From the NCBI GenBank assembly GCA_963715985.1, contig CAVQSP010000014.1, positions 320,001 through 384,000 on the forward strand: a stretch of 64,000 nt of DNA, given 5' to 3'. The stretch's first letter is position 1. Each line of letters opens with the position of its first letter. Below the pieces are notes generated by a model. The model was not told where the DNA came from, ran no database searches, and saw only the letters and a list, made by a program, of their open reading frames with translations. Shown piece after piece: positions 12,546 to 30,421 of the stretch. The DNA comes from an uncultured Thermoleophilia bacterium. Lineage in GTDB: Bacteria > Actinomycetota > Thermoleophilia > UBA2241. A program made the position numbers and the translations under genes.

Positions 12546-12633
12546 CCCTAACAAACGCATCAACCTGACGGCCACGAGCTACACTGCGGAAGTGAGGGTT
12601 GTTCGCCGCAGGCCTATGCGCAGCACGTTGGGC
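12546..12633 (+). repeat. attC site 1
   Basis: CCCTAAC..CGCATCAACCTG..CAGGCCTATGCG..GTTGGGC. Confidence 0.85.
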
Positions 12634-12654
12634 AAACACCGGTGGAGGTTGGTC

Positions 12655-13134
12655 GTGATCGGACGTCGTCTCCTCGCAGCCTGCGCCGTCGCACTTGCCT
12701 TGTGTGCCGTGCTGCTGCTTTCCGCCTGCGGCTCCGGCAGCGAAGCGACGCCAGGTCCGCAGCCCACTTACGGCACGGCACGCGAGACCGTGGTCGCCTT
12801 CTACGAGGCGCACGCCGAGGGCCGCGAGGCCGACGCCTACGCGCTGCTCTCCGATCTGCATGACCCCAGCCTGACGCTCGACCAGTACGTGGGCGAGACG
12901 CGCTGGCGGCGCGACCTGCAGCTGCAGGAGGTGGGCCCGGCCGAAGCCGAGAGCTCCGCAGGCCGTCCCGAGTACTACGAGAGCCTGCACGACCTGCGGG
13001 AGGTCATGGTCGAGTTCTACCAAGCGCACGACGCGGAGGCCCGCGAGAGCGGAGACGCGACCGAGTTCGTGACGGTCGCGCGGGAGAGCCCGGACGGCCC
13101 TTGGCGCATCGTCGAGATCGGTACGGGGCCGTGA
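12655..13134 (+). CDS. Lipoprotein, NTF2/DUF4829-like (cassette)
   Basis: Signal peptide with lipobox LSAC; ends PWRIVEIGTGP; RBS GGAGG. Confidence 0.7.
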   Translation: MIGRRLLAACAVALALCAVLLLSACGSGSEATPGPQPTYGTARETVVAFYEAHAEGREADAYALLSDLHDPSLTLDQYVGETRWRRDLQLQEVGPAEAESSAGRPEYYESLHDLREVMVEFYQAHDAEARESGDATEFVTVARESPDGPWRIVEIGTGP

Positions 13135-13152
13135 AGGGAGCGGTGGAGTGTT

Positions 13153-13239
13153 GCCCGACAAGCGGATCAAGCTGATTCGTCAAAGCGTCGCGGCAAGACG
13201 GAGCCGCGGCGCTCGCAGCTTATCCGCGGTGCGTTAGCC
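13153..13239 (+). repeat. attC site 2
   Basis: GCCCGAC..GCGGAT(C)AAGCTG..CAGCTTATCCGC..GTTAGCC, with the classic extrahelical base. Confidence 0.9.
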
Positions 13240-13281
13240 CGAACCGATTCTGTCCACACACCCGTAGGGAGACTTCTCGCA

Positions 13282-14028
13282 GTGGACATTCCACGGATAT
13301 TCAACATCACTGAGAGTGCTCACCGCATCCACAACCCGATCACACCCGAGAAGCTTGCCACTCTCGGCGCGGCGCTGCGTCTGGAATCGGGGGTCCGAGT
13401 GCTCGACCTCGGCAGCGGTTCGGGGGAGATGCTGTGCACCTGGGCGCGCGATCACGGCGTCATCGGCACCGGCATCGACATGAGCCGGTTGTTCACCGAG
13501 CAAGCGAGACTCCGTGCTGAAGAACTCGGCGTCGCCGATCAAGTCAAGTTCATCCATGGCGATGCTGCCGGCTATGTCTCTGACGAGAAGGCCGATGTGG
13601 CAGCCTGTGTCGGTGCCACTTGGATCGCTGGGGGAGTTGCCGGCACTATCGAGCTTCTGGCGCGGAGCCTGCGCACCGGAGGGATCATCCTCATCGGCGA
13701 GCCCTACTGGCGGCAGTTGCCGCCGACGGAAGATGTTGCCACGGGGTGTCTTGCCAACTCGATCTCCGACTTTCTCATGCTTCCAGGACTTCTCGCGTCT
13801 TTCGGCCACCTTGGCTACGACGTTGTTGAAATGGTTCTCGCTGACCAAGACGGCTGGGACAGATACGAGGCGGCCAAGTGGCTCACCATGCGCCGATGGC
13901 TTGAAGCCAATCCCGACGACGAGTTCGCGAAGGATGTTCGAGCCAAACTGACCTCGGAACCCGAGCGCTACGCCGCTTACACGCGCGAATACCTGGGCTG
14001 GGGTGTGTTCGCGCTGATGCCGCGGTGA
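13282..14028 (+). CDS. Class I SAM-dependent methyltransferase, YjhP-like (cassette)
   Basis: MDIPRIFNITESAHRIHNP, VLDLGSGSGEMLCTWA; visibly lower GC than flanks. Confidence 0.88.
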   Translation: MDIPRIFNITESAHRIHNPITPEKLATLGAALRLESGVRVLDLGSGSGEMLCTWARDHGVIGTGIDMSRLFTEQARLRAEELGVADQVKFIHGDAAGYVSDEKADVAACVGATWIAGGVAGTIELLARSLRTGGIILIGEPYWRQLPPTEDVATGCLANSISDFLMLPGLLASFGHLGYDVVEMVLADQDGWDRYEAAKWLTMRRWLEANPDDEFAKDVRAKLTSEPERYAAYTREYLGWGVFALMPR

Positions 14029-14108
14029 CGCGTTGGCGCATCCGGCGGATCGTCAACGTCCAAGGTCATTGGCGGTCGGCGTGGGCCCAGATTGGCTACA
14101 CGCGGTCG

Positions 14109-14193
14109 GGCTAACAGAGGCATCAACCTGACGGCCAGAAGGTAAACTGACCAGAAGGCGCCTGCGCCGCAGGTCATGCCTAACACGTTGGGC
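14109..14193 (+). repeat. attC site 3
   Basis: GGCTAAC..GGCAT(C)AACCTG(A)CGGC..GCCGCAGGTCATGCC..GTTGGGC. Confidence 0.9.
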
Positions 14194-14231
14194 ACATCAC
14201 GACGCGGCCACGGGCCACATCGCCTCTGTGT

Positions 14232-14729
14232 CTACGGTGTCTGGGCGCGCGCTTTGATGATCTCGATCGCGGCCTTGCCGGTCATGTGCTCGATGGCGAG
14301 CTCTATCACGCACACTCTCTTCCATTCGCCATCGATCTCGGAATCCGCCGCTTCGAGGTAGTCGGGAGAGTACTTCTTCGCGAGGGATTCGAGGGCGTGT
14401 CTCTTCTCACTGTCCTCTGTGAGGACCCTCGCCCTGCCGAAGACGATGGCACTTCGGAAGTGCGTGGTGAACGTGCTCTGCACAACGTCGTCTGCAGCTA
14501 TCACGCAGAACGAGGCCTTCTCGTTCCGCTCGATAGCATCGATCTTGTGGCCGGCCTTCGCAGAGTGAAGGAAGAGCTTGCCGTCTTCGTAGGCGAAGCT
14601 CAGGGGGACCGCATAGGGATAGTCGTCATCACCGTGTACCGCCAAGACCCCCGAGGTGCAGGACTGCAGCATGGCGATCGTTTCCGTCTCCGGGAGTTCT
14701 TGCCTCTTGCGCCTCATCCCTCTGAACAT
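14232..14729 (-). CDS. Nim-family 5-nitroimidazole reductase / PNPOx-like flavoprotein (inverted cassette)
   Basis: MFRGMRRKRQEL, YPYAVPLSF, HSAKAGHKIDAI, FTTHFRSAIVFGRAR, IEHMTGK. Confidence 0.85.
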   Translation of the reverse strand: MFRGMRRKRQELPETETIAMLQSCTSGVLAVHGDDDYPYAVPLSFAYEDGKLFLHSAKAGHKIDAIERNEKASFCVIAADDVVQSTFTTHFRSAIVFGRARVLTEDSEKRHALESLAKKYSPDYLEAADSEIDGEWKRVCVIELAIEHMTGKAAIEIIKARAQTP

Positions 14730-14847
14730 GGTGCTTCTCTCTCTTCCGTAGTACTGGCCAGTGGAGGCTGGCATCCGGGCGCGCAGCCACGTTCGACAGC
14801 TCACATACTAGCCGAAGCTGTGGCGCCCTGAGGGGGACTGAAGCGAC

Positions 14848-14937
14848 GCATGACAAGCGCATCGAGCAGATTGTTCCGCAGGCTATGATGTCGGCGACAG
14901 CGCAGCGAGCCAACTGCTCATGCGCGAAACGTCAGGC
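14848..14937 (+). repeat. attC site 4 (GAC/GTC)
   Basis: GCATGAC..GCGCAT(C)GAGCAG..CTGCTCATGCGC..GTCAGGC. Confidence 0.85.
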
Positions 14938-14950
14938 CCACGGAGTGCCG

Positions 14951-15730
14951 TTGAAGCGACCGCGTCTCATGGTCCACACTGTGGCCTCAGCCGATGGCCG
15001 GGTGTCGCTCGGCGCCAATCGTACGGGATTCGACGATGTTGGCGACGAGCGCTGGCAGGCGATCTGGGCTTCTGACACCAGCCTGGAGGAGAGTGTTCGC
15101 GCCCTCGTGTCTCGCTATCAGCCCCAGGTGCTGCTTGAGGGCAGCGGCTCGTTCGTAACGGAGGGCGCGAGTCTCTCGGAACTCCCTCCTGCGGAACTCG
15201 GCCCAGCGGAGCTGCATCGGGACTTCCTGCCCGGTGAGGTGGTGCACGCTCCGGACCACCGCGGATGGTTCGCGGTAGTGGATGGACGCGGGCGGATGCG
15301 GGCCGGGGTGAAGGAGTTCCCCGGTTGGGAGGGATGGCGCACGCTTCACCTCGTCTCCCATGCCACCCCGCCCGAGTACCTCGCCTTCCTCAGACGCTGT
15401 GGGATCCCCTACCTCATCGCGGGACGCGGGCATGTCGACCTCGAGCAGATCATGGCGAAGCTGAGGTCCCTCCTCGGCGTCAATTGCGTCGTTTGTACTG
15501 CCGGGAGCAGGCTGAACGGCGCTCTGCTGCGAGCGGGCCTGGTCGACGAGGTGAGCCTCGTGCTTCTGCCGGCGGTGATCGGGGGGTCCGAGACGCCGCA
15601 GCTGTTCCGCTGCGCTGAGCTGGGTCCTTCGGACTCGCCCACTCATCTCGAGTTGTTGTCCGTCGAGGGTGAATCCCAAGGGCGCGTCTGCCTCCGCTAT
15701 CGAGTCGTCGGAACGTCGAGCGAGGCCTGA
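14951..15730 (+). CDS. RibD C-terminal / DHFR-fold reductase (cassette)
   Basis: HTVASADGRV, GSRLNGALLRAGLVDEVSLVLLPAVIGG; stop lies in R'' of attC5. Confidence 0.85.
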   Translation: MKRPRLMVHTVASADGRVSLGANRTGFDDVGDERWQAIWASDTSLEESVRALVSRYQPQVLLEGSGSFVTEGASLSELPPAELGPAELHRDFLPGEVVHAPDHRGWFAVVDGRGRMRAGVKEFPGWEGWRTLHLVSHATPPEYLAFLRRCGIPYLIAGRGHVDLEQIMAKLRSLLGVNCVVCTAGSRLNGALLRAGLVDEVSLVLLPAVIGGSETPQLFRCAELGPSDSPTHLELLSVEGESQGRVCLRYRVVGTSSEA

Positions 15731-15814
15731 CAAGCGCATCAACCTGGCGCGTCTGGGCGCTGCGGTCGTATCCTCCGGCCGCAGCCCGTGCAGGTCATCC
15801 GCGGTGCGTTGGGC
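15725..15814 (+). repeat. attC site 5
   Basis: GCCTGAC..GCGCATCAACCTG..CAGGTCATCCGC..GTTGGGC. Confidence 0.88.
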
Positions 15815-15845
15815 AGAGCGGCGCATGGGTGAGGGTGAGAGGCGT

Positions 15846-16316
15846 ATGCGGACTCAGACGGTAAACGGCCCTTGGTGGGCGGCGCTCACCGTATGGGCCG
15901 TCGTCAACACCGTCAACCTGCTCCAGTCCGTCGGGTTCCTTTCAAGGATTCCGGCTGGCAGCATGGCGACCAACCAGCTGCTCGGCTACGTGATGATCGC
16001 CCTCGCGGCACCGGCGGGGCTCGCTCTCGTCGTGTTCTTGCGCGCTCGGGCAGGCTGGCTGCAATTGAGCGGCCCGATCGTCTACCTCGCCTTCGTCGCA
16101 CTGATGATCATCGTTGACTACGTCTCACCCATCGAGTGGCGATCTCCCGCGCGCTACGAGATCCTGGCGCCATATCTCCTGCTGTTCTTCGGGGCGATCT
16201 TGTTGATGGGCCTTCCCATGTACTGGCGTAGTCGCGCGTTCTGGATGGTGACGGTGGGGACTACTGTCCTATTGCTCGGTTCGATGGTACTCGCGTTGCG
16301 CGGAGGAGTGGGCTGA
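15846..16316 (+). CDS. Hypothetical membrane protein (cassette)
   Basis: About five hydrophobic helices; bounded by attC sites. Confidence 0.7.
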   Translation: MRTQTVNGPWWAALTVWAVVNTVNLLQSVGFLSRIPAGSMATNQLLGYVMIALAAPAGLALVVFLRARAGWLQLSGPIVYLAFVALMIIVDYVSPIEWRSPARYEILAPYLLLFFGAILLMGLPMYWRSRAFWMVTVGTTVLLLGSMVLALRGGVG

Positions 16317-16331
16317 TGCAGCCGGGCTCGC

Positions 16332-16416
16332 GCCTGACAAGGGCATCGAGCAGAATGCCAGAAGGCAGACTGACCTGAGAGGGTATCCGCGCCTGCTCAT
16401 GCCCAATACGTTGGGC
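16332..16416 (+). repeat. attC site 6
   Basis: GCCTGAC..GGGCAT(C)GAGCAG..CTGCTCATGCCC..GTTGGGC. Confidence 0.9.
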
Positions 16417-16490
16417 GTAGCAGGCTCGCAGCGTCTTCCACGGCCGAGGCGGGGTAGTATCCTTGTCGTGATGTCTTAGGGAGGTGAGTG

Positions 16491-16702
16491 ATGTCGGTCG
16501 TCTTTCGAATCGAGTTTGAGCGCGAGACGGACGGGCGCTGGATCGCCGAGGTAGTCGAGCTGCCTGGCGTGTTCGCCTACGGCGCGACCGAGGACGACGC
16601 CATCGCTCGCGTGCAGGCGCTGGCCCTGCGCGTCGTCGCTGACCGGCTCGAGAACGAGGAAGCCGGCGCGAGTATCGGAACATCTCCTTCGCCGCTGCGT
16701 GA
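16491..16702 (+). CDS. hicB: HicB-family antitoxin (apparent frameshift near the end)
   Basis: IEFERETDGRWIAEVVELPGVFAYGATEDDAIARVQALALRV. Confidence 0.85.
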
Positions 16703-16911
16703 GCGACTGGCTCAGCACGCGCGCCAACGCTCGTCCTCGCCGCCCTCCTGCGCATCGGCTGGACGGTCGAGCGACAGACCGGCTCACACAAGGTCCTCTC
16801 GCGCCCGGGCAGGCTCAAGCTCGTCTTCGCCTTCCACGACCGCGAGGGATCGGGCCGCGGATGCTCGCGCGCCACGCCAAGCACAGCGGCCTGAGGCCCG
16901 GGGACCTGTGA
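16699..16911 (+). CDS. hicA: HicA-family toxin (apparent frameshifts)
   Basis: VLAALLRIGWTVERQTGSHKVL..FAFHD..IGPRMLAR..KHSGLRPGDL across frames. Confidence 0.8.
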   Translation: MSDWLSTRANARPRRPPAHRLDGRATDRLTQGPLAPGQAQARLRLPRPRGIGPRMLARHAKHSGLRPGDL

Positions 16912-16921
16912 GAGTGAGCAC

Positions 16922-17009
16922 GCCCAACCAAGCGCATCGTGCAGAACGCCACGGGGTCTGCCGCACGGCGACAGGCACGCCGCGTCTGCCCATGCGCGAT
17001 GCGTCGGGC
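16922..17009 (+). repeat. attC site 7
   Basis: GCCCAAC..GCGCATCGTGCAGA..TCTGCCCATGCGC..GTCGGGC. Confidence 0.8.
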
Positions 17010-17079
17010 ATCACGAGCCGCGTCAACGGTTGCTCACAGTCAGCCGTGGTAGCGGGCCACAGCACCAAGGAGAGCCCTC

Positions 17080-17475
17080 ATGACAGTCGATCGCGAGAAG
17101 GTCAGCAGGATGGCTGCAGCCTACACGGCGGCCTGGAATTCCGGCTCACCAGACGCCGTTGCGTCCTTCTATGCTCCAGATGGGCAGATCGTCATCAATC
17201 GCGGTCAGCCGTGGGTCGATCGCAAAGGCATCTCTGAAATGGCCGCGGGCTTCTTCGCCGACGTGCCAGATCTTCAGTTGACGTGCGACGAGGTGCGTTG
17301 TGCTGGCGATCATGTCGCGTATTTCTGGACCTTTGCCGGGACACACGCAGCCACGAAGAATCCACTTCGAGTCGTCGGCTGGGAAGAGTGGGATCTCGAT
17401 GCCGACTTGAAGGTCATTGCATCGCGGGGTTGGTACGACTCCGCCGACTACGAACGGCAGACCACGGCCAGATAG
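17080..17475 (+). CDS. SnoaL/NTF2-like protein (cassette)
   Basis: YTAAWNSGSPDAVASFYAPDG, WTFAGTH, GWEEW, SRGWYDSADYERQ. Confidence 0.85.
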   Translation: MTVDREKVSRMAAAYTAAWNSGSPDAVASFYAPDGQIVINRGQPWVDRKGISEMAAGFFADVPDLQLTCDEVRCAGDHVAYFWTFAGTHAATKNPLRVVGWEEWDLDADLKVIASRGWYDSADYERQTTAR

Positions 17476-17577
17476 ATGAAGGGCGTTCCCGGCATGGACT
17501 GCATCAATCCCTACGGCGGATCGTAGTAACGCAGAACGCCGCAGAACATCATGACAGCGCGCTCTTGAGGATGTGAT

Positions 17578-17620
17578 GCCCAACCACTCGGTCAAGCGGA
17601 CCCGCCTGCGGCAGTCCGTC
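17578..17620 (+). repeat. Truncated attC (left half only), divergent family
   Basis: GCCCAAC-CACTC-GGTCAAGCGGACCCGCCTGCGGCAGTCCG, with no matching L'/R' arm. Confidence 0.6.
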
Positions 17621-17635
17621 CGCCGGACCGCAGAC

Positions 17636-17962
17636 ATGTCGAAGGACAGTCTTCCGCCAGGCTCACCGTGGAGACCCCATCGTCGTAGGCAGCGCGTAGG
17701 CATGAGACTGTGGCTGGGCTATCTCCCCGGCGTCATCGTGCTCGGTTGGCCACTCTCGAGGGCGCTTGGATCCGGGCTCGCGTACCTGGCCGTTGCACTG
17801 GCCTGGATGGCAGCGGGCCTGCTCGTCCAGTTCTGGGCAGGGTCCTTTCGCTGCCCTCGATGCGGGAACCCCTTCTACCGGAACGGGGGTATCAGGGCTC
17901 GTGGGCACGCAGGTGTGCTCATTGCGGCCTCCTCATATGGGCTGAGTGTCGAGAATGCCTGA
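17636..17962 (+). CDS. Small membrane protein with CPRC zinc-ribbon motif (cassette; possible frameshift)
   Basis: Two TM helices then FRCPRCGNPF; a second CAHC motif in a shifted frame. Confidence 0.55.
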   Translation: MSKDSLPPGSPWRPHRRRQRVGMRLWLGYLPGVIVLGWPLSRALGSGLAYLAVALAWMAAGLLVQFWAGSFRCPRCGNPFYRNGGIRARGHAGVLIAASSYGLSVENA

Positions 17963-18043
17963 CAAGGCGTTCGAGCTGAGTCACGTAGTCGGCGCGCAAG
18001 ACTGTGGCGTGGGCTCTCGCAGCTCAACGCCCGGACGTTGGTC
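17957..18043 (+). repeat. attC site 9
   Basis: GCCTGAC..GGCGTT(C)GAGCTG..CAGCTCAACGCC..GTTGGTC. Confidence 0.88.
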
Positions 18044-18112
18044 ACAGCCTTCTCCACTGGTGGCGTGGGTGCGTTAGTGGTACCGTTCCCAGTAGCATAG
18101 GAGGTAGCGTCA

Positions 18113-18388
18113 ATGGCATCAGTACCCGACATCGTCCCCATCACCGACCTACGCCAGAACGCCTCGGGCGTCATCAAGCGCGCCGCCGACACGCAGCAGC
18201 CGGTGTTCATCACCCAGCGCGGCCGCGCGGCCGCCGTCGTCGTCAGCGCCAGGGCCTACGAGCGCACGCAGCACGAGCTCGAGATCCTGCGCCTGCTCGC
18301 CCACGGCGAGGCCGAGATCGAGGCCGGCATCGGGCACGCGCTCGCCGACGTGCTCGACGAGGCCGACGAGCTGCTCGGCAGGCCGTGA
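18113..18388 (+). CDS. Phd/YefM-family antitoxin
   Basis: IVPITDLRQNASGVIK..PVFITQRGRAAAVVVS. Confidence 0.9.
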   Translation: MASVPDIVPITDLRQNASGVIKRAADTQQPVFITQRGRAAAVVVSARAYERTQHELEILRLLAHGEAEIEAGIGHALADVLDEADELLGRP

Positions 18389-18691
18389 GCCGCGGGGTCC
18401 TCTTCACGCCTGCCGCCCGCGAGCAGTTCCTCGCGACGCTGGCCTACATCGCTGCCGACGACCCGGCCGCGGCGCGAGGTCTGCGCGACCGCGCCGCCGC
18501 CTCACTCTCGCGCCTCGCCGACTACCCCGAGTCGGGCCGCGTGCTGCCCGAGTTCCCGACCTGCCGTTTCGCGAGGTCGTCGTACCGCCGTACCGCTTCT
18601 TCTACCGCGTGAAGGACGACGCGGTCTGGGTCGTCGCAGCCTGGCACTCAGCCCAGCTCCAGCAGAGCCGGAGGATGTTGGGCGGGACTGA
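18385..18691 (+). CDS. RelE/ParE-family toxin (apparent frameshifts)
   Basis: FTPAAREQFLATLAYIAADDPAAA..YPESGRVLPEF/FREVVVPPYRFFYRV..VAAWHSAQL. Confidence 0.85.
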
Positions 18692-18773
18692 CAAGCGGAT
18701 CTGTCGAGGCGCCTGCGCGCGGTATCCTTCAGCCGCGAGCGCGGGCTCGCAGGTCATGCGCGGTGCGTTAGTC
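18686..18773 (+). repeat. attC site 10
   Basis: GACTGAC AAGCGGATC..GCAGGTCATGCGCGGTGC GTTAGTC. Confidence 0.8.
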
Positions 18774-18786
18774 CGAACTCCGGAGA

Positions 18787-19416
18787 GTGGTTGCTGTGTA
18801 CCTCGCCAAACCAGAGGTCCCGACCGGCCAGGGAGTCCTGGTCCTGCACTCGTGGTGGGGCTTGAACGGGTTCTTCCGCGACCTGTGCGACCGGCTGGCA
18901 TCAGACGGCTTCGTCGCACTCGCGCCGGATCTCTACGACGGCAGGACCGCGAGCACCATCGGTGAAGCGAAAGCCCTACGTGCAAGGGTGGGCGCCTCCA
19001 GGAAGGAGTCCGCCTACCGCTACCTCATCCGCATGATCGGCGAGCTCGAAGCGCAGGCTGCCGGGGACCTTGCCCTGCTCGGCTTCTCGATGGGCGGACA
19101 TTGGGCCTACTGGCTCTCTCGGCGCCCTGAGCTTCCCATCTCGAAGACGGTGACGTTCTATGCCGCACGCGACGGGGACTACTCGACAAGCCGCTCAGCC
19201 TTTCTCGCTCACTTCGCCCAGACTGATGAGTGGGTGTCGGCTACCGATGTGCGCAAACTCGAGCGCAGCTTGGCCAAGGCCGGTCGCGAGCATGTGTTCC
19301 ACACCTACGAGGGCACCGGGCACTGGTTCTTCGAGTCCGACAGGCCTGAGTACGACCCTGAGGCCGCGGCGCTCGCATGGGAGAGGACGCATGCCTTCCT
19401 GCGGAGGTCGGGCTGA
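18787..19416 (+). CDS. Dienelactone hydrolase family protein (cassette)
   Basis: VLVLHSWWGLN, ALAPDLY, GFSMGG, YEGTGHWF, AALAWERT. Confidence 0.9.
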   Translation: MVAVYLAKPEVPTGQGVLVLHSWWGLNGFFRDLCDRLASDGFVALAPDLYDGRTASTIGEAKALRARVGASRKESAYRYLIRMIGELEAQAAGDLALLGFSMGGHWAYWLSRRPELPISKTVTFYAARDGDYSTSRSAFLAHFAQTDEWVSATDVRKLERSLAKAGREHVFHTYEGTGHWFFESDRPEYDPEAAALAWERTHAFLRRSG

Positions 19417-19501
19417 CGAGCGCATCAGGCTGACGCGCAGCAAGCGCCGGCGTCGTGTTCTGGGACCGTCGCACGCGCAGCTCATGCGCGGAGCGTTCGG
19501 C
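19411..19501 (+). repeat. attC site 11
   Basis: GGCTGAC..GCGCATCAGGCTGACGCG..CGCGCAGCTCATGCGC..GTTCGGC. Confidence 0.85.
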
Positions 19502-19550
19502 GCACCACGGCCGCCGGCGCTCATAGGCAAGGTGGGGTAGGGAAGACCGC

Positions 19551-19919
19551 ATGGACGCATTGCTCTACGTCGCAGCCGCGTTGACCGGCCTCTGGGGGAT
19601 CGCCCACCTCTTCGCCACTCGCGGCGTCGTGGCCGGCTTCGGCGAGCTCACGGCGGACAACCGCCGCATCATCACCATGGAGTGGATCGTCGAGGGCGTG
19701 GCCTTGGTCTCGCTCGCCTCCCTTGTCGCCGCGGTCACCGCCGTCGATGCGGCCGCAAGGGTCTCCTCGGCGGCCTACGCCGTCGCCATCGCCACGCTGC
19801 TCGTGCTGGCGCTCGTCTCGCTCGCGACCGGCTTTCGGGTCGCCTTCCTGCCCTTCCGCCTCTGCCCCTTCATCTTCACGCTCTCCGCGGTCCTGATCGC
19901 TCTGGGCGCCTGGCGGTGA
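19551..19919 (+). CDS. Hypothetical membrane protein (cassette)
   Basis: Four TM helices; WGIAHLFATRGVVAGFG..DNRRIITMEWIVEG. Confidence 0.75.
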   Translation: MDALLYVAAALTGLWGIAHLFATRGVVAGFGELTADNRRIITMEWIVEGVALVSLASLVAAVTAVDAAARVSSAAYAVAIATLLVLALVSLATGFRVAFLPFRLCPFIFTLSAVLIALGAWR

Positions 19920-19946
19920 CGGGGCGCTCGCCGGCAGCGGGCGGGC

Positions 19947-20036
19947 ACCGAACAAGCGGCATCGAGCTGATGCGCCGCAGGGTCTTCAGCACCCGGGGAG
20001 CGCTGCGTGCGCAGCGTCATCCGCGGTGCGCTAGAC
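19947..20036 (+). repeat. attC site 12
   Basis: ACCGAAC..GCATCGAGCTGATGCGC..GCGCAGCGTCATCCGCGGTGC GCTAGAC. Confidence 0.75.
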
Positions 20037-20064
20037 ACAACAGAAGCCGTGACCGCGGCGTGTA

Positions 20065-20096
20065 CGATACGTTATACTGTACGTCATAGCGTATCG
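20065..20096. promoter_or_regulatory. Imperfect 11-bp inverted repeat around TATACT, probable TA promoter/operator
   Basis: CGATACGTTAT-N10-ATAGCGTATCG directly upstream of a Phd antitoxin. Confidence 0.55.
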
Positions 20097-20112
20097 AACC
20101 ACGGAGGCCCCC

Positions 20113-20394
20113 ATGCCGCTCTTCCGCCCATCCGTCGACGTCCGTCCCGTCACCGAGTTCCGCGCCCACGCCTCGGAGGTGCTCGAGCAGGTCCAGTCCA
20201 CGAAGCGTCCGGTGGTGCTCACCCAGCACGGCCGCAGCGCCGCCGTGCTCCTCGACGTCGAGCTCTACGAGGACCTTGTCGAGGAGGTCGCCCTGCTCCG
20301 CGACCTGTGCGCCGCCGAGGCGCAGCTCGACGCCGGCATGGTGGTGCCGCACGAGGAGGTCGAGGCGCGCCTCCGGGAGCGCTACGGACGGTGA
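20113..20394 (+). CDS. Phd/YefM-family antitoxin
   Basis: DVRPVTEFRAHASEVLEQVQSTKRPVVLTQHGRSAAVLLDV. Confidence 0.9.
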   Translation: MPLFRPSVDVRPVTEFRAHASEVLEQVQSTKRPVVLTQHGRSAAVLLDVELYEDLVEEVALLRDLCAAEAQLDAGMVVPHEEVEARLRERYGR

Positions 20395-20687: not shown

Positions 20688-20692
20688 CGTGG

Positions 20693-20782: not shown

Positions 20783-20804
20783 GCACCAAGGCAGGAGGGT
20801 CTTC

Positions 20805-22814: not shown

Positions 22815-22841
22815 GGATACTCCTTCGTGATGCGGTAGCTG

Positions 22842-23574
22842 CTAGCTCGCAGGGCTCGGGTCGGTCAGGCAGGGTGCTCCGGAGTCGACGAGCCTTCACG
22901 CCCCTCACGAGGAGCCACAGCGACAGCCCCACTTCGGCGACGAAGCTCACGACGAGCCCGGGAGAGGTGATCGCGGGGTGGGCCGGCAGTAGCAGGGCCT
23001 GAACGAACCAGATCAGGACGGCGATCCCGTCAAGCAGCAGAAGGACGCCCAGGAACCGGGGAAGGTAGCCGGACTTGTAGACCAGGTAGCCGAGCGGGAA
23101 CAGCCACGTGCCGAAGAACAGCTGGGCGGTGACGAAGCCCGTCTTGTACACGTTGATGGACAGGTACCCCAGCCCCTCCAGCTGGGCCGCCGAGTAGGCC
23201 TGCATGTGACTGCCCGCGTCGCCCATCAGGAGCGCGGAGAGCAGCGGGAACATGCTCGCGCACTGTATGGCGACACCGACCGTGTTGAGCAGGAGGAAGA
23301 GCAGCGCCAGATGCTTGTTGACCGGTCGCAGAAGGACGTAGAGACCCCAGGCGGCCATGAGGAAGAGGAACGCCGAGATCAGCCCGACGACAAGAGCCAG
23401 GCGGAAGGATGATGGGTTCGTGACGACCGACTGGTAGACCTGCTGCGCGCTGCCCAGCCCGATGTGCCCCAGCCTGTCGGCGAGCACGGACGTCAGGATG
23501 AACGCGAGGTAGCAGCCGCCCGTGATCCTGGCCAGCCTGTCCGGCGCCAGGCGATCTGTGATGCTGTGGGACAT
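22842..23574 (-). CDS. DUF4386-family membrane protein (3' end approximate)
   Basis: ARITGGCYL, LYVLLRPVNK, FFGTWLFPLGYLVYKSGYLPRFLG, LWLLVRGV. Confidence 0.85.
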
Positions 23575-23609
23575 TGCGGTCCCTCCTCTTCTGTCGTTCG
23601 ACGTGCGGA

Positions 23610-23924
23610 TCACGAGATGCTCGCTGACGGCTTGGCGCCCGTCTCTTTCCGAGCGGCGGTGGCGTTGGAGTGGGGAGTCCTGGGGCACGGGGCCCGTGCG
23701 ACGGAGAGCAGCGGCACGCCCAGATCGCGGATCCTCCTCAGCAGGCCATGCAGGGCGGCCTGATCGGCTACCGGTCCGCTGAGGAGCGTCGTGCCGTCCT
23801 CTTTCGGCGTGACGGTCAGGCCCTCGAACCAGTCTGACCATTCGCGGTCGAGATGGCCTTCGATCCTGATCTCGTAGATCGTCGGCTGCCCTGGATCAGG
23901 TTGGGGATCAGGTGTGCTCGGCAT
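23610..23924 (-). CDS. Small conserved protein typically found next to MalT-like LuxR regulators
   Basis: YEIRIEGHLDREWSDWFEGLTV..GPVADQAALHGLLRRIRDLGVPLLSV. Confidence 0.8.
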   Translation of the reverse strand: MPSTPDPQPDPGQPTIYEIRIEGHLDREWSDWFEGLTVTPKEDGTTLLSGPVADQAALHGLLRRIRDLGVPLLSVARAPCPRTPHSNATAARKETGAKPSASIS

Positions 23925-24019
23925 CGGCCTGTGTCCGTTCTCGCGGGTGATGACGGTGCGTGCCACCAGCTCGGTGTACGGGCAGGCTAGGCGTGCCGGA
24001 GTGCCTGCGGTAGACACTT

Positions 24020-24055
24020 CGGTGTGGGTCGGAGTGTTGTTCTGAGTGTTGTTCT
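24020..24055 (-). promoter_or_regulatory. 12-bp tandem repeat AGAACAACACTC x2 plus a degenerate third copy; candidate regulator sites
   Basis: GAGTGTTGTTCT at 24032 and 24044, between the regulator and its downstream operon. Confidence 0.5.
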
Positions 24056-24106
24056 GGGGTGATGAGGAGCGGAGCGCGGAGGCCGGCGGGGCGCGGGGGG
24101 CTGCGT

Positions 24107-26780
24107 CTACAGCAGGCCCAGCTCCCCGGCGCGGGCGACGGCCTCGGTGCGCCGCTGCACGTTGAGCTTCTCGAAGATGCGGCGGTTGTGGCCCTTGACC
24201 GTGTCCAGGGCCAGGAAGAGCCGCTGGCCGATCTCCCGATTCGAGAGGCCTTGGGCGATCAGCCGCAGGACTTCGAGCTCGCGTTGGCTGAGCGGCTCGG
24301 CCGACGACGAAGGACCGGGAGCGGGGGATGCCGGAGCGGAGGCTGCCGGTCGTCCGCCCTTCGTCTCCCGCCGGAAGGCGGCCAGGAGCCGGCCTACGTA
24401 GTCCGGCCGGATACCCTGCGCGGCCGCCGCGGACAGGAGCTCCGCCATCGGAGCCCCTTCATCCACGAAGAGACGGATGAAGCCGCCGGGCTCGGCCAGC
24501 GCCAGCGCCTCGCCCAACGAGTGCGCCGCCGCGCCCTCGTCCGCCCCGCCCTCTTCCTCGAGCGCGTGCTGGGCAACGGCTTGCAGCACTAGCGTCCTCA
24601 GCCGTTCGTCCGCCCAGCCCTGGGCCTGCAGGCGCTGGCCCAAGGGTCCCAGCACCGCCAGCGCTGCGCCCGGATCGCCCTGGGCGATGAGCACGCGCGC
24701 CTGGCTGTGCGGGAGGTCGTACTGCCCGGCAAGTCGAGCGGCAGCGGCGACCTGGTCCTGTCTGATCAAGATGAGGACCTGCGCGGCGGCGATCTCCGGC
24801 AGCCGCATGATGAAGGCGTTGTCCTGCGCGGATCGTTGCGCCTCGGCCAGCATCGTCGCCGCGCCCTCCGCATCGCCCCGGGCCAGTGCCACGCGGGCGA
24901 GGAAGACGTCGCCGGCGATGGATCGGTCGATCGCGCGGTCGTAGAGCCGGGCCAGATCCCGGCTCTGCTGCGCGTGCCGTTCGGCGGCATCCAGGTCGTC
25001 CCACTCGTAGGAGATGGAGGCCAGGCTGAGATGCGCTTCCTCGACGTTCGGCAGCGGCTGGTCGCCGGCGAGCTCCAGCACTCGCCGGTAGCTCTCGGCC
25101 GCCTGGTGGAGCTGGTTGTCCAGCTCCTGCACCTTGCCCAGGGCCTCGGACGCCAGCATCCTCGAGAACACGTGCCCGGATCTCTCGGCGAGCTCGACAC
25201 ACTCCCGGCAGGCGCGAGCGGCGGCCGACCCGATCGCCCCCAAAGAGCTGGGCGTACGTCGCCGCCCACGCGGCGGTGAAGCGGAAGGGCAGGTTCTCGG
25301 GGCGCAGGTACTCCTGGGCACGACGTGCCTGGGCGGCCATCGTCTGGACGTCGTAGCGGGTGAACGCCAGGGTGGCCCTGGCACAGGCTATCTGCCCGAT
25401 CAGGTCGCGGACCTCCTCGTCGAGGTCAACGCCCTGCAGCGCCTGCTCGGCCGCCTGCAGCTTCTCCTCGACCCCCGTCGTCTGCGCGGCCATCAACGTC
25501 ACCGTGGCGGAGCGCACCAGCAGCCGGGGTCGTGCCTCGAGCACCGCTCCTGGGAGGGAGGCCAGCCAGTCCAGGATGGGCATCAACACGCTGCGCAGAT
25601 GCAGGTCCATGTCCGAGCTGTCGATGAGACGCTCCGCGCGCTCCACGTCGTCGGCTGCCGTCGCGTGCTGGAAGGCCTCGAGGAGCCGGCCCTCGCGCTC
25701 GTACCATTCACTGGCCCGGAGGTGCAGGTCGGCGATCTCCTCCGCCGAGGCACTCTGCCCCAGCCGGCGCTGCAGCAGGTCGCCGAAGAGATGGTGGTAG
25801 CGGAACCAGCGCCGTTCGTCGTCCAGAGGGATGATGAACAGGTTCGCGCGCTCTATGGCCCGCAGGGTCTCATCGCTCGCGCCGGCCGGGGCGCGCAGGA
25901 GCGCGTCGCACAAGGGGCCGCACAGGCGGTCGAGGACGGACGTGCGCAGCAAGAACGTCTGGACCTCGGCGGGCTGTCGCTGCAGGACCTCCTCGAGCAG
26001 GTAGTCCAGCACGAAGCGGTGGCTCCCGGTGAAGGAGCGGATGAAGCCGGCGGCATCCGGGAGTCCCTGGAGGGAGATGGCCGCCATCTGCAGTCCGGCG
26101 ATCCAGCCCTCGGTGCGGGTCTCCAACGCCTCGATGTCGTCTGCTGAGAGGTCGAGACCCGCCGCCCGCTTGAGGAACTCGGTGGCTTCAGCGGGCGTGA
26201 ACCGCAGGTCGGCGGCGCGCAGCTCGGTCAGCTGGCCGCGGGCGCGCAGCCGGGCGAGGGGCAGACGTGGGTCCTCGCGGGTGGCGATGACGAGATGCAT
26301 CCGCGGCGGCAGGTGCTCGAGCAGAAACGCGAGGGCCTCGTCGTCCGGCCTGGAATCGAGCACATGGTAGTCGTCCAGGATGAGCACGAAGTCGTCGGGG
26401 ACGGTGCTGAGCTCATTGACGATGGTCGTGAGGATCGACTCGATCGGCGGCGGCTGAGGCGACTGGAGCGCGACCATCACCCCGCTGCCGATCTCCGGTG
26501 CGATCGTCCGCGAGGCGGCGACGAGGTAGGTCAGGAAACTCGAGGGATCGTCATCTCTCTGATCGAGCGACAGCCAGGCGACCGGTCGCCCACACCCGAC
26601 GGCCCATTCGGCGACCAGTGTGGTCTTGCCGAAGCCCGCGGGTGCAGAGACGAGGGTCAGCTGCCCGTGCGTGCCCTCGTTCAGCCGCTCCATCAAGCGG
26701 GGGCGGGCGACTACGCCGGGCCGAGGCGGCGGGACGTACAGCTTCGTCAAGAGAAGTGGGGCAGGCGCTCCGTTGGTCAC
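24107..26780 (-). CDS. MalT-like STAND ATPase / LuxR-HTH transcriptional regulator (apparent frameshift ~25235)
   Basis: LLTKLYVPP, APAGFGKTT, LILDDYH, TEGWIAGLQ, WFRYHHLF, C-terminal LSQRELEVLRLIAQGLSNREI. Confidence 0.92.
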
Positions 26781-26945
26781 AGCCGCTCCAGGAGCCGAGT
26801 CACGGCAAACTCAGGACCAGTCTATCCGTTCCTGCCTTGCCGTTCCCTCCGAGTAGGCGGAGCGCGCCCATCCCCGGACGGTGGGGATAGCGTATCGTTC
26901 CACTTCAGGAAGGGCCATGTTGCAGGTGGTCTCTGGATTCGCGCT

Positions 26946-27032
26946 ACCTGACGATCGCGTCAACCTCGCGCGGCCCAGCGCCGCGATACACTGCGGTCGC
27001 AGCGCGCGCAGGTCTTGCGCTGCACGTTGGAC
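26946..27032 (+). repeat. attC site 16
   Basis: ACCTGAC..CGCGTCAACCTCGCGCG..CGCGCGCAGGTCTTGCG..GTTGGAC. Confidence 0.75.
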
Positions 27033-27062
27033 CGACATCACAGGAGACGCATCGGGGGGACC

Positions 27063-28034
27063 ATGAAGGCAGTCGTGCAGACCGAGTACGGCACGCCGGA
27101 CGTCATGCGGCTCGCGGACGTCGACACTCCCTCAGTCCGCGAGAACGAAGTCCTCGTGCGCGTTCGTGCCGCCTCCGTGAACCCGCCGGACTGGGCCGGA
27201 GTGCATGGCGCGCCGTACATCGTCCGCCTGGCCTTCGGGCTGCGCAGGCCCAAGCTCGGCATCCGCGGCACCGACCTGGCGGGCACAGTCGAGGCGCTCG
27301 GCGCGAACGTGACACGGCTGTCTGTCGGTGACGAGGTCTTCGGCGTCGGCGTCGGCACCTTCGCGGAGTATGCGGTCGCAAAGGAAGAGCACCTCGCGCC
27401 GAAGCCGGCCGGCATCACGTTCGAACAGGCTGCAGCCACGGGGATGGCCGCATTGACCGCGCTCCAGGCGCTGCGTGACGCCGGTCGCATCCGGGCGGGA
27501 CAGAAGGTGCTCATCGTCGGCGCCGGCGGCGGGATCGGCACGTTCGCCGTCCAGATCGCGAAGTCCTTTGGCGCGCACGTGACCGGCGTCTGCAGCACGT
27601 CGAAGCAGGAGCTGGTCCGCTCGCTCGGCGCCGACAACGTCATCGACTACACGGCGGAGGACTTCACGCAGGGCGGAGAACGCTACGACCTCATCTTCGA
27701 CAATGTGCTGCGACACTCGCTGTCCGAGCTCCTGCGTGCGCTCAATCGCAGCGGCACACTCGTGCCCAACGGCGGTCAGTTCTACAAGCGCTGGTTCGGG
27801 AGCGTCGGTGTCCTCATGGTCAAGGCGCCGCTGCTCTCGCTGTTCGTGCCGCAGCGGATCCGCGTGTGCACGGAGCGCCCAAGGCAGGACGATCTGCTCG
27901 TTCTGAAGCAACTCATCGAGTCCGGGAAGCTGATGCCGGTCGTCGGCCGGACGTACCGTCTGGACCAGGCCGGCGAAGCCATCTCCCACTTCGGGGAGGG
28001 GCACGCAGAGGGCAAGGTCGTCATCACTCCCTGA
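27063..28034 (+). CDS. NAD(P)-dependent MDR-family dehydrogenase (cassette)
   Basis: MKAVVQTEYGTPDV, AASVNPPDW, VLIVGAGGGIGTFAVQIAK, GHAEGKVVI. Confidence 0.9.
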   Translation: MKAVVQTEYGTPDVMRLADVDTPSVRENEVLVRVRAASVNPPDWAGVHGAPYIVRLAFGLRRPKLGIRGTDLAGTVEALGANVTRLSVGDEVFGVGVGTFAEYAVAKEEHLAPKPAGITFEQAAATGMAALTALQALRDAGRIRAGQKVLIVGAGGGIGTFAVQIAKSFGAHVTGVCSTSKQELVRSLGADNVIDYTAEDFTQGGERYDLIFDNVLRHSLSELLRALNRSGTLVPNGGQFYKRWFGSVGVLMVKAPLLSLFVPQRIRVCTERPRQDDLLVLKQLIESGKLMPVVGRTYRLDQAGEAISHFGEGHAEGKVVITP

Positions 28035-28058
28035 GGCTGGGGAGCGGACCCGCCTGCG

Positions 28059-28147
28059 GTCCAGCAAGCGCATCGACCCGACGTGCCCAAGCCTTCTGTA
28101 GTGACCTCAGACCGCAGCCCGCTCAGGCCATGCGCGGTGCGATAGAC
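28059..28147 (+). repeat. attC site 17 (degenerate)
   Basis: GTCCAGC AAGCGCATCGACC..CAGGCCATGCGCGGTGC GATAGAC. Confidence 0.7.
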
Positions 28148-28174
28148 CGCCCACTCAAGCCAGACGACTCGCCC

Positions 28175-28570
28175 TCAGCTCGCGGCCTTGCGCACGATGG
28201 CGGCGAGCTTGGCCTCGGTCGCGTCGTCCAGCGCGGTGAAGAACCAGGCCGATTCACGGAGCTGGTGCGGCGCGCCCTCCTCGAGGCTGAGGTTCGCCTT
28301 GTCGGTGAGGCCGAACGTCATGTATGTGTCCGCGCGGAAGAAGCAGACGACCGGACCGTCCTTCGCGTACGCCGGCATGCCGTACCACGTGGTCGCCTGC
28401 AGAACGGGCGCGCTGCGCAGGACGAGTGCGTGGAGACGCTCGCCCATGGCGCCGTAGGGTTCCGGCATCGCGGCGATCTTCGCGAGCGCTGCAGCCTCGC
28501 TGTCACCCTTCTTCACAGCCGGCTTCGCGGCCTTCTTCCTCGCCTCTTTGCCCGCCTTGTTCTCAGCCAT
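28175..28570 (-). CDS. DUF1801-family protein (inverted cassette)
   Basis: ALAKIAAMPEP, TWYGMPAYAKDG, YMTFG. Confidence 0.82.
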   Translation of the reverse strand: MAENKAGKEARKKAAKPAVKKGDSEAAALAKIAAMPEPYGAMGERLHALVLRSAPVLQATTWYGMPAYAKDGPVVCFFRADTYMTFGLTDKANLSLEEGAPHQLRESAWFFTALDDATEAKLAAIVRKAAS

Positions 28571-28733
28571 TGCTACTCCCGCTTCCGGTGTCTTGTCGTT
28601 GGGGCTCCAAGTCCGGTTGCCGCTCGGACCCGCGATCGGGGTCGCGGCATCTCACGGAGCTCGTATGTGATACCCGCACGGCTCGGTGGCCAAGAGCACC
28701 GCTCGCCCGGAGGCTCGCGGCACGCCGGTGGCC

Positions 28734-28816
28734 GTCCGACAGGCGCATCGAGCGGACGGCGCACGCTACACTGGTCCCATCGCGCGTGAGCGCCGCTCAT
28801 CCGTGGTGCGTTCGAC
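28734..28816 (+). repeat. attC site 18
   Basis: GTCCGAC..GCGCAT(C)GAGCGG(A)CG..CGCCGCTCATCCG..GTTCGAC. Confidence 0.8.
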
Positions 28817-28847
28817 AGACCCAAGACCCTCGGCAGGAGAGGACTCC

Positions 28848-29835
28848 GTGTCCGTTCAGCCTGACATCCATCGCCACGTGTGCGTCTTCGGCGTCGGCGG
28901 CGTCGGCGGCTACTTCGGCGGCCGACTCGCGTGGTGGCTGGCGAGTCAGACTGCTCCGACCTGGCACGTCCATTTCGTCGCGCGTGGCGCGCATCTGGCC
29001 GCGATCGACAGTCGCGGTCTTGAGCTGGACACTCCCGGCGCGCGGCTGACGTGCGTGCCTGCTTCTGCGTCTTCGGACATGAAGCGCTTGCCCGTTCCCG
29101 ACGTGGTGCTGCTGTGCGTCAAGGGCTACGGCCTGGACGAGGCGCTGCGGCAGATCGCCGCCCACTGCGGCGAGGACGCCGTGGTCATCCCGCTGCTGAA
29201 CGGCGTGGACATCCACGAGAGGATCCGCGTTCATCTCCCCAAGGCTCGCGTGCTTCCCGCGTGCGTCTTCGTCGGCACTCACGTGGACCGGCCCGGGGTC
29301 GTCTCACAGGCGGGCGGCGACGGGGTCATCGTCCTCGGCGGCGACCCCGATGACCCTGACTTCGTGCCGGTGTCGTTCCTCTCGCTGCTCGAAGATGCCG
29401 GCATCCGTTTCACCTGGTTCGACGACCCCCGCCCCGCGATCTGGGAGAAGTACGTGTTCATCTCGGCGCTTCGGGCTGGTGACCGCCGCTTCGCGGAAGA
29501 CCCTCGGCGCTGTCCTCACAGACGCCCGTCTCCTCGAGGATGCTCGCGAGATCATGCGCGAGGTCGCCAGTCTCGCGGTTCGCGAGGGTGTCGTTCTCGA
29601 TCCCGAAGTCGTCTCCACTGCCGTGGCCAAGGCACGTGGATTCCCCTTCGAGACAAAGACGTCGTTTCAGCGAGACGTGGAGTCGGGGGGCCAGGACGAA
29701 GGTGACCTGTTCGGGGGTACGATCCTTCGTCTGGGGAGGCGGCACGGGGTGCCCACCCCGACGACACAGCGCGTCTACGCTCAGGTGCGTGAGGGCGCAA
29801 CAGGGGCACTCTCGGCCGAGCGCAGCTCCGGGTAG
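28848..29835 (+). CDS. panE: 2-dehydropantoate 2-reductase family (apparent frameshift ~29470)
   Basis: GVGGVGGYFG, LCVKGY, PLLNGVD, IWEKYVF, KTSFQRD. Confidence 0.85.
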
Positions 29836-29892
29836 AATCCGCACATGGCGGTGACCCCCACGTGTCATAGGCCTCGGGACCAAGGAAGAGAA

Positions 29893-30297
29893 ATGGGCGT
29901 GAAGAAGAGCGGATCGCAGGAGAGCACGTCTCCTTCGCAGCTGATAGACGCGAGGATCAAGGAGCTGGGCGACTGGCGTGGCGAGATGCTCGGCCGGCTC
30001 CGCACCTTGGTCAAGGAGGCCGATCCCGAGATCATCGAGGAGTGGAAGTGGAGAGGAGTCCCGGTCTGGTACCACGACGGGATGGTCTGCACCGGCGAGA
30101 CCTACAAGGACCATGTGAAGATGACCTTCGCCAAGGGCGCGGCTCTGGAGGATCCTTCGGGTCTCTTCAACTCCGGTCTCGACGGGAACGTCAGGCGGGC
30201 CATCGACTTCCATGAGGGCGAGCAGATAGACGAGCAGGCGTTGAAGACTCTCGTTCGCGCCGCCGTCACTCTGAACAAGTCCACAGCCCGAAGCTGA
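29893..30297 (+). CDS. DUF1801-family protein
   Basis: LIDARIKELGDWRGE, EEWKWRGVPVW, MTFAKGAAL, RRAIDFHEG. Confidence 0.88.
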   Translation: MGVKKSGSQESTSPSQLIDARIKELGDWRGEMLGRLRTLVKEADPEIIEEWKWRGVPVWYHDGMVCTGETYKDHVKMTFAKGAALEDPSGLFNSGLDGNVRRAIDFHEGEQIDEQALKTLVRAAVTLNKSTARS

Positions 30298-30337
30298 TCC
30301 ACGGACTGGCGATAGGCCGCAAGGCCCGCCCATTGAC

Positions 30338-30421
30338 GCCTGACAAGCGCCTCGCGCGGGCGGCCGGAGCCTGAAGCCACCTGTAGGCGCGTAGGCCGCC
30401 GTCAAGGCACTCGCGTCCGAC
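30338..30421 (+). repeat. attC site 19 (highly degenerate; last in the array)
   Basis: GCCTGAC AAGCGC..GTCCGAC; same length class, weak arms. Confidence 0.5.

Follow-up and report, generated by a model that had tools for sequence, protein, structure and literature searches.

An integron array in an uncultured actinobacterium in which attC sites depart from AAC/GTT at one triplet base pair

An array with altered triplets

The array of 18 attC sites carried by an integron in G000, an uncultured Actinomycetota genome, departs as a whole from AAC/GTT at one defined base pair of the core triplets, and the arrays of its closest relatives do not. The sites lie at 12546-30421 of what is here called the window, the whole stretch of 64,000 nucleotides that was analysed (contig C14:320001-384000), and all are on the + strand. 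AAC in the R'' box, with GTT in the R' box, is treated as the single fixed sequence feature of attC, and both the tools for detection and the models of mechanism rely on it. In place of this pair, which is found in 93-98% of the sites of relatives, R'' in the window is dominated by GAC (12 of 18 sites, with AAC in five and AGC in one), and R' reads GTT in 11 sites, GTC in four and GCT, GCC and GAT in one each; these counts are exactly those of the original prediction, which had been made from the letters of the window. The departure is a peculiarity of this one genome and not a general habit of GC-rich bacteria. What may well lie behind it, in a judgement held at about even confidence, is a real lineage-specific loss or change of constraint on a single triplet base pair, in an integron that is eroding and has an integrase changed at the corresponding contact, and perhaps inactive.

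That the 18 units are genuine attC sites, as had been proposed, is borne out by model searches, pairing and covariation alike. They are 83-91 nt long and share one layout, R'' (7 nt), a short spacer, L'', a variable middle, L', a second spacer and R' (7 nt). The units were extracted by hand and with direct-repeat families and then aligned (alignment A1); in this alignment the R and L helices are paired in 83.6% of cells, where slid partners give 24-38%, and covariation is 0.278 against 0.148 when shuffled, with none of 500 shuffles as high. A covariance model, R1, built from A1 and so trained on the window's own 18 sites, returned from the whole window, with filters off, exactly these 18 + strand sites at 54-88 bits; the next-best match scored 19 bits on the - strand, and there was no other + strand match at E < 0.01. 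The bottom strands of several sites fold into an imperfect hairpin with a bulged G in L'' (the site at 14848 is an example), and the architecture of the window sites is that of attC.

Positions 1-4 of R'' pair with the R' of the preceding site in 54 of 68 cases, against 44 of 72 for their own R', and the cassette boundary lies inside R' (G|TT). The better pairing of R'' with the preceding R' indicates that the cassettes were once mobile and were inserted by crossover at G|TT. Cassette 7 shows a compensated pair, GCCCAAC with a GTTGGGC start, where its orthologues have GCCGAAC with a GTTCGGC start. The GAC sites are for the most part altered on one arm, eight being GAC/GTT and three GAC/GTC. 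The original prediction saw covariation in two cassettes that start with GTC and end with GAC; there are in fact three with a TC start and a GAC end (5, 8 and 15), and the association falls short of significance, since GAC ends 3/3 of these and 7/11 of the cassettes that start with TT (Fisher p = 0.51).

The attC family in relatives

Full-length sites of relatives were gathered with a profile made from A1, in two samples that overlap in part. In the first, of 181 sites, R'' is AAC in 169, GAC in eight, AGC in three and AAA in one, and R' is GTT in 175, GCT in three, GTC in two and ACT in one; in the second, of 295 sites from 18 arrays in 16 same-genus genomes, AAC is found in 287 and GAC in four, and GTT in 289 and GTC in two. 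The 12 of 18 GAC sites in the window are to be set against 8/181 and 4/295, and relatives' arrays of 36 and 51 sites contain no GAC at all. Where R1 found sites next to related integrases of other lineages, cyanobacteria among them, 20 of 20 are AAC/GTT. The sole other GAC-enriched array is that of L057 (relatives' loci carry L numbers), where GAC is present in three of seven sites. Because the sites of relatives are canonical, the non-canonical state belongs to the window array and not to the lineage or to high G+C generally. A pattern census with GACAAGCGNATC and AACAAGCGNATC over 101 genomes gave 17-44 AAC hits in large arrays and four in G000; it is a rough guide only, as the GAC pattern is an ordinary coding word with a background of 0-10 even in genomes without the attC family.

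R1 matches 48 of 53 other same-genus genomes and 54 of 60 same-family genomes; among the class's other 40 genomes it has matches in five, most of them with marginal E-values. The nearest integrases, with 66-86% identity over the catalytic domain, come from metagenome-assembled genome records titled Thermoleophilia, Actinomycetota or Coriobacteriia, and next after these stand the integrases of Cyanobium and Synechococcus. In the integrase-anchored loci of relatives that have attC (among L041-L080) all sites are downstream of intI and on the + strand, the same strand as intI. In this uncultured genus of actinobacteria it is normal to find a complete integron, made up of intI and an array that counts as many as 51 attC sites in the stretches analysed; the IntegronFinder 2.0 paper, where it treats complete genomes, states that Actinobacteria lack complete integrons (PMC9024848). 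No report of integrons encoded by Thermoleophilia was found in the titles and abstracts searched.

Origin of the changed base

Many window cassettes have orthologues in relatives at 72-96% identity. For GAC cassettes 2, 4, 5, 9, 10, 12 and 17 the orthologues read AAC in 16 of 17 rows, with one row misaligned, so that A>G arose in parallel within the lineage of G000, in seven or more cassettes. The eight orthologues of cassette 3 are mixed, with AAC in three, GAC in two, AAT and GAT in one each and one with an insertion. Denoting the changed base of R'' as position 5 and its paired base, position 3 of R', as position 83, the family consensus is kept in 5 of 18 sites at position 5 and in 13 of 18 at position 83. 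Across the 24 other conserved columns it is retained in 390 of 432 cells, and at the other triplet positions in 16/18, 18/18, 18/18 and 15/18. The 5:83 pair alone stands out among the conserved columns.

The rate of the change was compared with a neutral proxy, third-codon A in a relative read as G in the window (27/105, 26%). At position 5 the A>G change, in 12 of 17 sites, exceeds this proxy (p = 1.5e-4), as it does in the orthologous cassettes, 7 of 11 after exclusion of cassette 3 with its mixed orthologues (p = 0.0095); at position 83, where the proxy is 15%, T>C in 5/18 sites is not significant (p = 0.12). Several general causes were considered and set aside. A hypermutable TA or TAA context was ruled out (TA>TG 40/292, TAA 5/18), and so was GC amelioration of the array, as the cassette bodies show 206 changes from AT in the relative to GC in the window and 219 in reverse, with no net GC drift, and A>G at 9.5% of A. 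A methylation-type motif was dropped, there being no motif-linked A>G outside attC, where AAC>GAC is seen in 15 of 167 cases, and no flanking motif. Gene conversion between attC sites was also dropped: relative to orthologues the cassette-specific positions 1-4 of R'' are unchanged and their surroundings little altered, which indicates isolated point changes and not conversion tracts.

The part played by stop codons bears on the proposal, in the original prediction, that the triplets are a GC-adapted attC dialect (TAA to TGA), which would be typical of high-GC hosts. The G+C content of G000 is 70% genome-wide (64-77% in the window), and TGAC is present in 10 of the 12 GAC sites. Its TGA is the stop of an open reading frame (ORF) in about five cassettes, at 15728, 17960 and 19414 as had been claimed and also at 21783 and 26949, and for two of the TGA-terminated ORFs (RibD_C, 14945-15730, and dienelactone hydrolase, 18787-19416) Pfam support extends to the last residue. 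Of two further stops that had been called probable the one at 21783 does end an ORF (21402-21785); that at 18689 closes a frame open for 100 codons, yet this frame looks shifted relative to orthologues. CGAC stands at the other two GAC sites, in five TGAC sites the TGA does not stop the main ORF, and stop-codon selection as sole cause was dropped, with at most about five to six of the 12 GAC sites being ORF stops. The proposal of a dialect of high-GC hosts does not hold and is very improbable: AAC is present in 93-97% and GTT in 97-98% of same-genus sites, those beside related integrases of other lineages are canonical in 20 of 20, the orthologues of the GAC cassettes read AAC and the cassettes show no net GC-ward substitution. 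The relatives' loci analysed average 66% G+C, with attC masked, against 70% for G000.

The integrase

Judged from its sequence, the window integrase is an integron-type tyrosine recombinase with the IntI-specific extra segment. Its catalytic part matches VchIntIA (2a3v) at E = 1.9e-53 through the KYP..W.W..FP segment that is specific to IntI, and it keeps the catalytic R, K, HxxR, H and Y together with the Lys equivalent to K160. In the assembly the frame is not intact: PF13495 lies in the frame opening at 10284, PF00589 falls in another, that of 10358, and over the last 14 residues the first frame is resumed; the breaks may be real or assembly errors. In related loci both domains are in one ORF in 73 of 80. 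A search for a second IntI in G000 gave none, the other matches being to a partial catalytic domain (residues 84-172 at most) at 42-56% identity.

Codon 10356-10358 of the window intI is CAT, for His, at a position that is Tyr in 38 of 38 aligned relatives and in 63 of 63 motif-bearing relatives. The His aligns with Y26 of VchIntIA, which is Y37 of IntI1. The passages of Frumerie et al. (2010, PMC2811028) that concern this part of the site discuss K171 and Y37 against it; Y37 is there placed less than 5 Å from the GTT strand, Y37F is said to lower recombination more than 1e5-fold, and the conservation of GTT is called absolute in all integrons then characterised. The equivalent of K171 is kept in the window integrase. 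As the number of unique integrase substitutions in G000 is ordinary, two where others have up to three, the coincidence of Tyr>His with the GTT arm is suggestive, no more.

On the favoured reading, that of a lost or changed constraint, an attC family that is normally AAC/GTT genus-wide has had the first A of its R'' triplet turned to G in G000, independently in at least seven cassettes after divergence from their orthologues. In the folded bottom strand the changed base is T3 of the GTT arm, the one that is not cleaved, and 8 of 18 sites of the present array therefore have a C.A mismatch two bases from the scissile phosphate in the bottom strand and a G.T wobble in the top strand. The lineage's integrase, with His for an invariant Tyr and a frame broken twice in the assembly, would no longer enforce this base pair; the sites are eroding generally, and position 5 has changed fastest. 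That the change is to G would fit with A>G being the commonest substitution for A in G000, with TGA in place of TAA keeping the stop and with pairing of the top strand being kept. A causal link from the integrase to the change at position 5 is conjectural, and the sites may still recombine or may not. The relaxed IntI specificity of the original prediction survives as a possibility for this lineage alone (one base pair, Tyr>His), and an inactive integrase fits equally.

Erosion and possible co-adaptation

Erosion of the array is apparent beyond the triplets. L-box cells are Watson-Crick in 163 of 198 (82%) in the window against 1721 of 1804 (95%) in relatives. A second profile, trained on nine canonical relatives' arrays and tested on held-out relatives and on the window, detects all 18 window sites, with scores from -0.2 to 67 bits and a median of 29, where the held-out relatives' sites have a median of 65 bits; about 5 bits per site are lost under this profile to a G at position 5. 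Leaving aside 5 and 83, changes are found in 19 of 144 cells of conserved A/T columns and in 23 of 288 of conserved G/C columns; change at conserved columns in the window is above that in relatives and below the neutral proxy. If decay is the explanation, the array shows which position fails first after loss of an integrase.

Several points weigh against a loss of constraint tied to the integrase. A dead integrase predicts neutral drift everywhere, and the A/T columns, at 19/144, are below the proxy of 26-31%. Position 5 has moved at about 2.7 times the proxy rate, and the two rates together are accounted for neither by relaxation alone nor by a known hot spot. A change of the second A, which would give a TAG stop and also keep the wobble, is seen once against 12 times for the first A. 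L057, with its GAC in three of seven sites, has an intact integrase that keeps the Tyr. G000 is no outlier in its count of unique integrase substitutions, the His codon is a single T>C from Tyr, in the same class of change as those in attC, and the frame breaks of intI may be assembly errors, as pntB, a neighbouring housekeeping gene, is broken too, and so are brnT and one cassette.

On a rival reading, functional co-adaptation, the Tyr>His integrase would be active when its frames are correctly read and would prefer or accept C at T3, with GAC cassettes favoured in consequence, selection acting on cassettes, and the system as a whole naturally re-targeted. Only the 5:83 pair is hit, beyond the proxy, which points to direction and not just relaxation, and the other triplet positions are conserved; the unique substitution is at the very residue reported against the GTT strand; and the frame breaks of intI may, like those of pntB, be errors of assembly. 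The candidate attI keeps GTT, and in the account of IntI1 in PMC2811028 recombination of a GTC/GAC attC with a wild-type, GTT attI is as frequent as that of the wild type. In the same account recombination falls 150-fold when both partners carry GTC, and GTC/GAC is uncleaved in vitro in attC x attC complexes. The loss of recombination with Y37F makes damage the more probable outcome of Tyr>His, the eroded L-box pairing and profile scores are unexpected for an active system, and a contact would be hit by chance with a probability of about 0.17 (an estimate from two unique changes, 88 invariant columns and about eight contacts). Co-adaptation is, on balance, unlikely; if true, core-site specificity of integrons can evolve in nature. 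A stepwise form of it, in which the integrase went from Tyr to His and the cassette pool then switched its arm to GTC (R'' GAC) cassette by cassette, is distinctly unlikely, and would be the first natural co-evolution of an integron integrase with the "invariant" core triplet. Between them, the window and its relatives offer both states for comparison in nature: AAC and GAC versions of the same cassettes, and Tyr and His versions of one integrase family. With these it becomes directly testable what conserves the third base pair of the triplet.

Could the changed base be an artefact?

At one position of a hairpin, A might have been turned into G in the consensus or base calls by a base modification peculiar to the strain or by a local consensus of poor quality. 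The assembly of G000 (4.35 Mb in 22 contigs) has a completeness of 88.8% and a contamination of 7.3%, and several frame breaks cluster at 9-19 kb of the window, two in pntB, two in intI, one in brnT and one in cassette 9. The A>G and T>C classes are shared by the attC sites and the His codon, and an error tied to one double-stranded motif would mimic GTC/GAC pairing as well. Identical contexts are nevertheless called differently (GCCCAACAAGCG and GCCCGACAAGCG, GGTGCGTTAGGC and GGTGCGTCAGGC); genome-wide, TAAC as a share of TAAC and TGAC, 0.033, equals TAAG as a share of TAAG and TGAG, 0.032; and no flanking motif surrounds the 273 A>G differences, the largest Kullback-Leibler value being 0.13 bit, with AAC>GAC outside attC as infrequent as given above. 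R'' has G in 12 of 17 and R' has C in 5 of 18 (p = 0.018), though both carry the same double-stranded motif. GAC is present at low frequency in relatives' arrays and in the cassette 3 orthologues, which are from other assemblies, and because relatives with 36-51 sites show no GAC the hairpin itself is not the cause of error. An artefact is quite improbable.

Twenty metagenome runs each hold 0.16-0.24 of the words sampled, and the four examined (X1-X4) gave short related contigs of 90-99% identity, none of which spans the stretch, so that they supply related fragments and no reads of G000 itself. Among the differences listed for runs X1-X3, a related contig over 14703-15720 has 14850 A>C and 14932-14933 TC>AT; its R'' is GCCTGAC-like and its R' has GAT in place of GTC. 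Several related contigs join different attC sites of the array. Because contigs join the sites differently and carry other triplets, cassette order and triplets vary in related populations. The clustered frame breaks at 9-19 kb may be real decay or poor local consensus. Among the genes at 2.8-8.5 kb, by comparison, about 5 kb can be aligned to ORFs of relatives without a change of frame.

Relation to known systems

The closest precedent is the set of engineered class 1 attC mutants of Frumerie et al. (2010, PMC2811028), in which the same base pair, T3/A1' of G1T2T3, was changed. Those mutants were made in the laboratory with both arms altered and paired, in contrast to the window, where the changes are natural and mostly one-armed, and the C3.A1' mismatch of the window is outside the set described as tested in that paper's treatment of the triplet.

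In having intI on the attC strand the window, like its relatives, has the arrangement of the inverted integron-integrase group, known for instance from certain Treponema (Cury et al. 2016, in the part of PMC4889954 that describes the group). The host phylum, Actinomycetota, is different, and the likeness is one of gene orientation. With sedentary integrons that have inactivated integrases the window shares a fixed locus (pntB-intI synteny), a homogeneous host-specific attC family, toxin-antitoxin cassettes and a broken intI beside a degenerating array; intI pseudogenes are noted by Cury et al. (2016, PMC4889954), who in that passage cite work on Xanthomonas. In such decaying elements decay is expected to be spread over the site, unlike the window with its one position changed in 12 of 18 sites, faster than the neutral proxy. 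Because pntB precedes intI in five relatives the element is sedentary, with the same locus recurring in those five and the attC family in 48 of 53 genomes across the taxon; Cury et al., where they define the term (PMC4889954), ask either that the integron be present in 100% of the pan-genome or that it have more than 19 attC sites, and the window array has 18.

Locus anatomy

The order pntB, intI, brnTA, candidate attI and cassettes, all on the + strand (Table 1), makes this an inverted-type chromosomal integron. The relatives whose loci have pntB upstream of intI are L051, L048, L042, L046 and L039. With relatives' ORFs as tblastn queries, pntB at 9149-9274 is in a different frame from its flanks, in agreement with three-frame translation, and the ORF of cassette 9 shifts frame near 18560 relative to L042 and L046. 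The brnT/brnA toxin-antitoxin pair, coming after intI and before the candidate attI, is outside the cassette array, an arrangement shared by L042. An extra attC that had been considered at 11807-11941 was dropped, as it lacks an attC fold and matches the region after intI in L046, and was re-read as the candidate attI. The latter has 74.5% identity over 106 nt to L046:10623-10727, which lies between the intI end and the first cassette there, and the parDE cassette that starts at 11935 in the window lies behind an attC R' in L048.

Table 1. Features of the integron locus (window coordinates; triplets given as R''/R' boxes)
Feature	Position	Strand	Remarks
pntB	8808-10205	+	Pfam PNTB; conserved chromosomal flank; two compensating frame breaks near 9140 and 9272
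intI	10284-11258	+	Same strand as cassettes (inverted type); frame breaks near 10697 and 11213
brnT	11305-11590	+	Pfam BrnT_toxin, partial profile match; one frame break at about 11500
brnA	11577-11813	+	Weak RHH/CopG matches
candidate attI	11834-11941	+	Putative crossover G|TTAGCGG at 11935, placed by sequence
cassette 1	11936-12633	+	Antitoxin 12015-12245 (Unstab_antitox), ParE toxin 12242-12544 (ParE_toxin), attC 1
attC 1	12546-12633	+	CCCTAAC/GTTGGGC; 58 bits; closes cassette 1
attC 2	13153-13239	+	GCCCGAC/GTTAGCC; 84 bits; L022 orthologue GCCCAAC
attC 3	14109-14193	+	GGCTAAC/GTTGGGC; closes methyltransferase cassette widespread in the genus
attC 4	14848-14937	+	GCATGAC/GTCAGGC; fold with R box, spacer and L box with bulged G; L158 orthologue GCCCAAC
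attC 5	15725-15814	+	GCCTGAC/GTTGGGC; TGA 15728 stops RibD_C protein 14945-15730; L051 orthologue GCCTAAC
attC 6	16332-16416	+	GCCTGAC/GTTGGGC; no orthologue found in search of relatives
attC 7	16922-17009	+	GCCCAAC/GTCGGGC
attC 8	17957-18043	+	GCCTGAC/GTTGGTC; TGA 17960 ends ORF 17573-17962
attC 9	18686-18773	+	GACTGAC/GTTAGTC; orthologues AAC in 8/8
attC 10	19411-19501	+	GGCTGAC/GTTCGGC; TGA 19414 stops dienelactone hydrolase 18787-19416; L049/L159 orthologue GGCTAAC
attC 11	19947-20036	+	ACCGAAC/GCTAGAC; L046 orthologue ACCGAAC
attC 12	20693-20782	+	GTCTGAC/GCCGGCT; closes ParE-containing cassette; orthologues GTCTAAC in 3/3
attC 13	21238-21324	+	GCCCAAC/GTTAGGC; top score, 87.6 bits
attC 14	21780-21869	+	GGCTGAC/GTCAGGC; TGA 21783 ends ORF 21402-21785
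5-kb block in array	21870-26945	-	Zn-dehydrogenase-like protein, DUF4386, 773-aa AAA_16/NACHT/TPR STAND-type NTPase
attC 15	26946-27032	+	ACCTGAC/GTTGGAC; TGA 26949 ends ORF 26295-26951
attC 16	28059-28147	+	GTCCAGC/GATAGAC; closes Zn-dehydrogenase cassette
attC 17	28734-28816	+	GTCCGAC/GTTCGAC; L046 orthologue GTCCAAC
attC 18	30338-30421	+	GCCTGAC/GTCCGAC; last, most degenerate; 54 bits (R1), -0.2 bits (relatives' profile)

Besides those of cassette 1, the products recognised in the cassettes are a methyltransferase, a RibD_C protein, a dienelactone hydrolase, a Zn-dehydrogenase and a second ParE. The methyltransferase cassette (13240-14193) is found at 90-96% identity across many genomes of the genus (L141-L147, L057), often off the main arrays, and its R'' has decayed along more than one route. 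The block at 21870-26945, in which a search with R1 gave no attC, resembles either DNA inserted into the array or a multi-gene cassette that is atypical.

Elsewhere in G000, R1 has matches at C20:254003-254089, C11:614942-615028, C11:615689-615748 and C14:179300-179386, which are solitary or in small clusters with no integrase nearby; the three that are full-length read AAC, AAC and GAC, and that at C11:615689 is partial. Rfam gave no match at E <= 1 over 11500-31000 and, on the canonical relative array L125, no attC and one chance miRNA match. At the gathering threshold over the whole window it returned no attC, and its sole match was an ordinary Bacterial RNase P class A RNA at 41503-41891 (273 bits).

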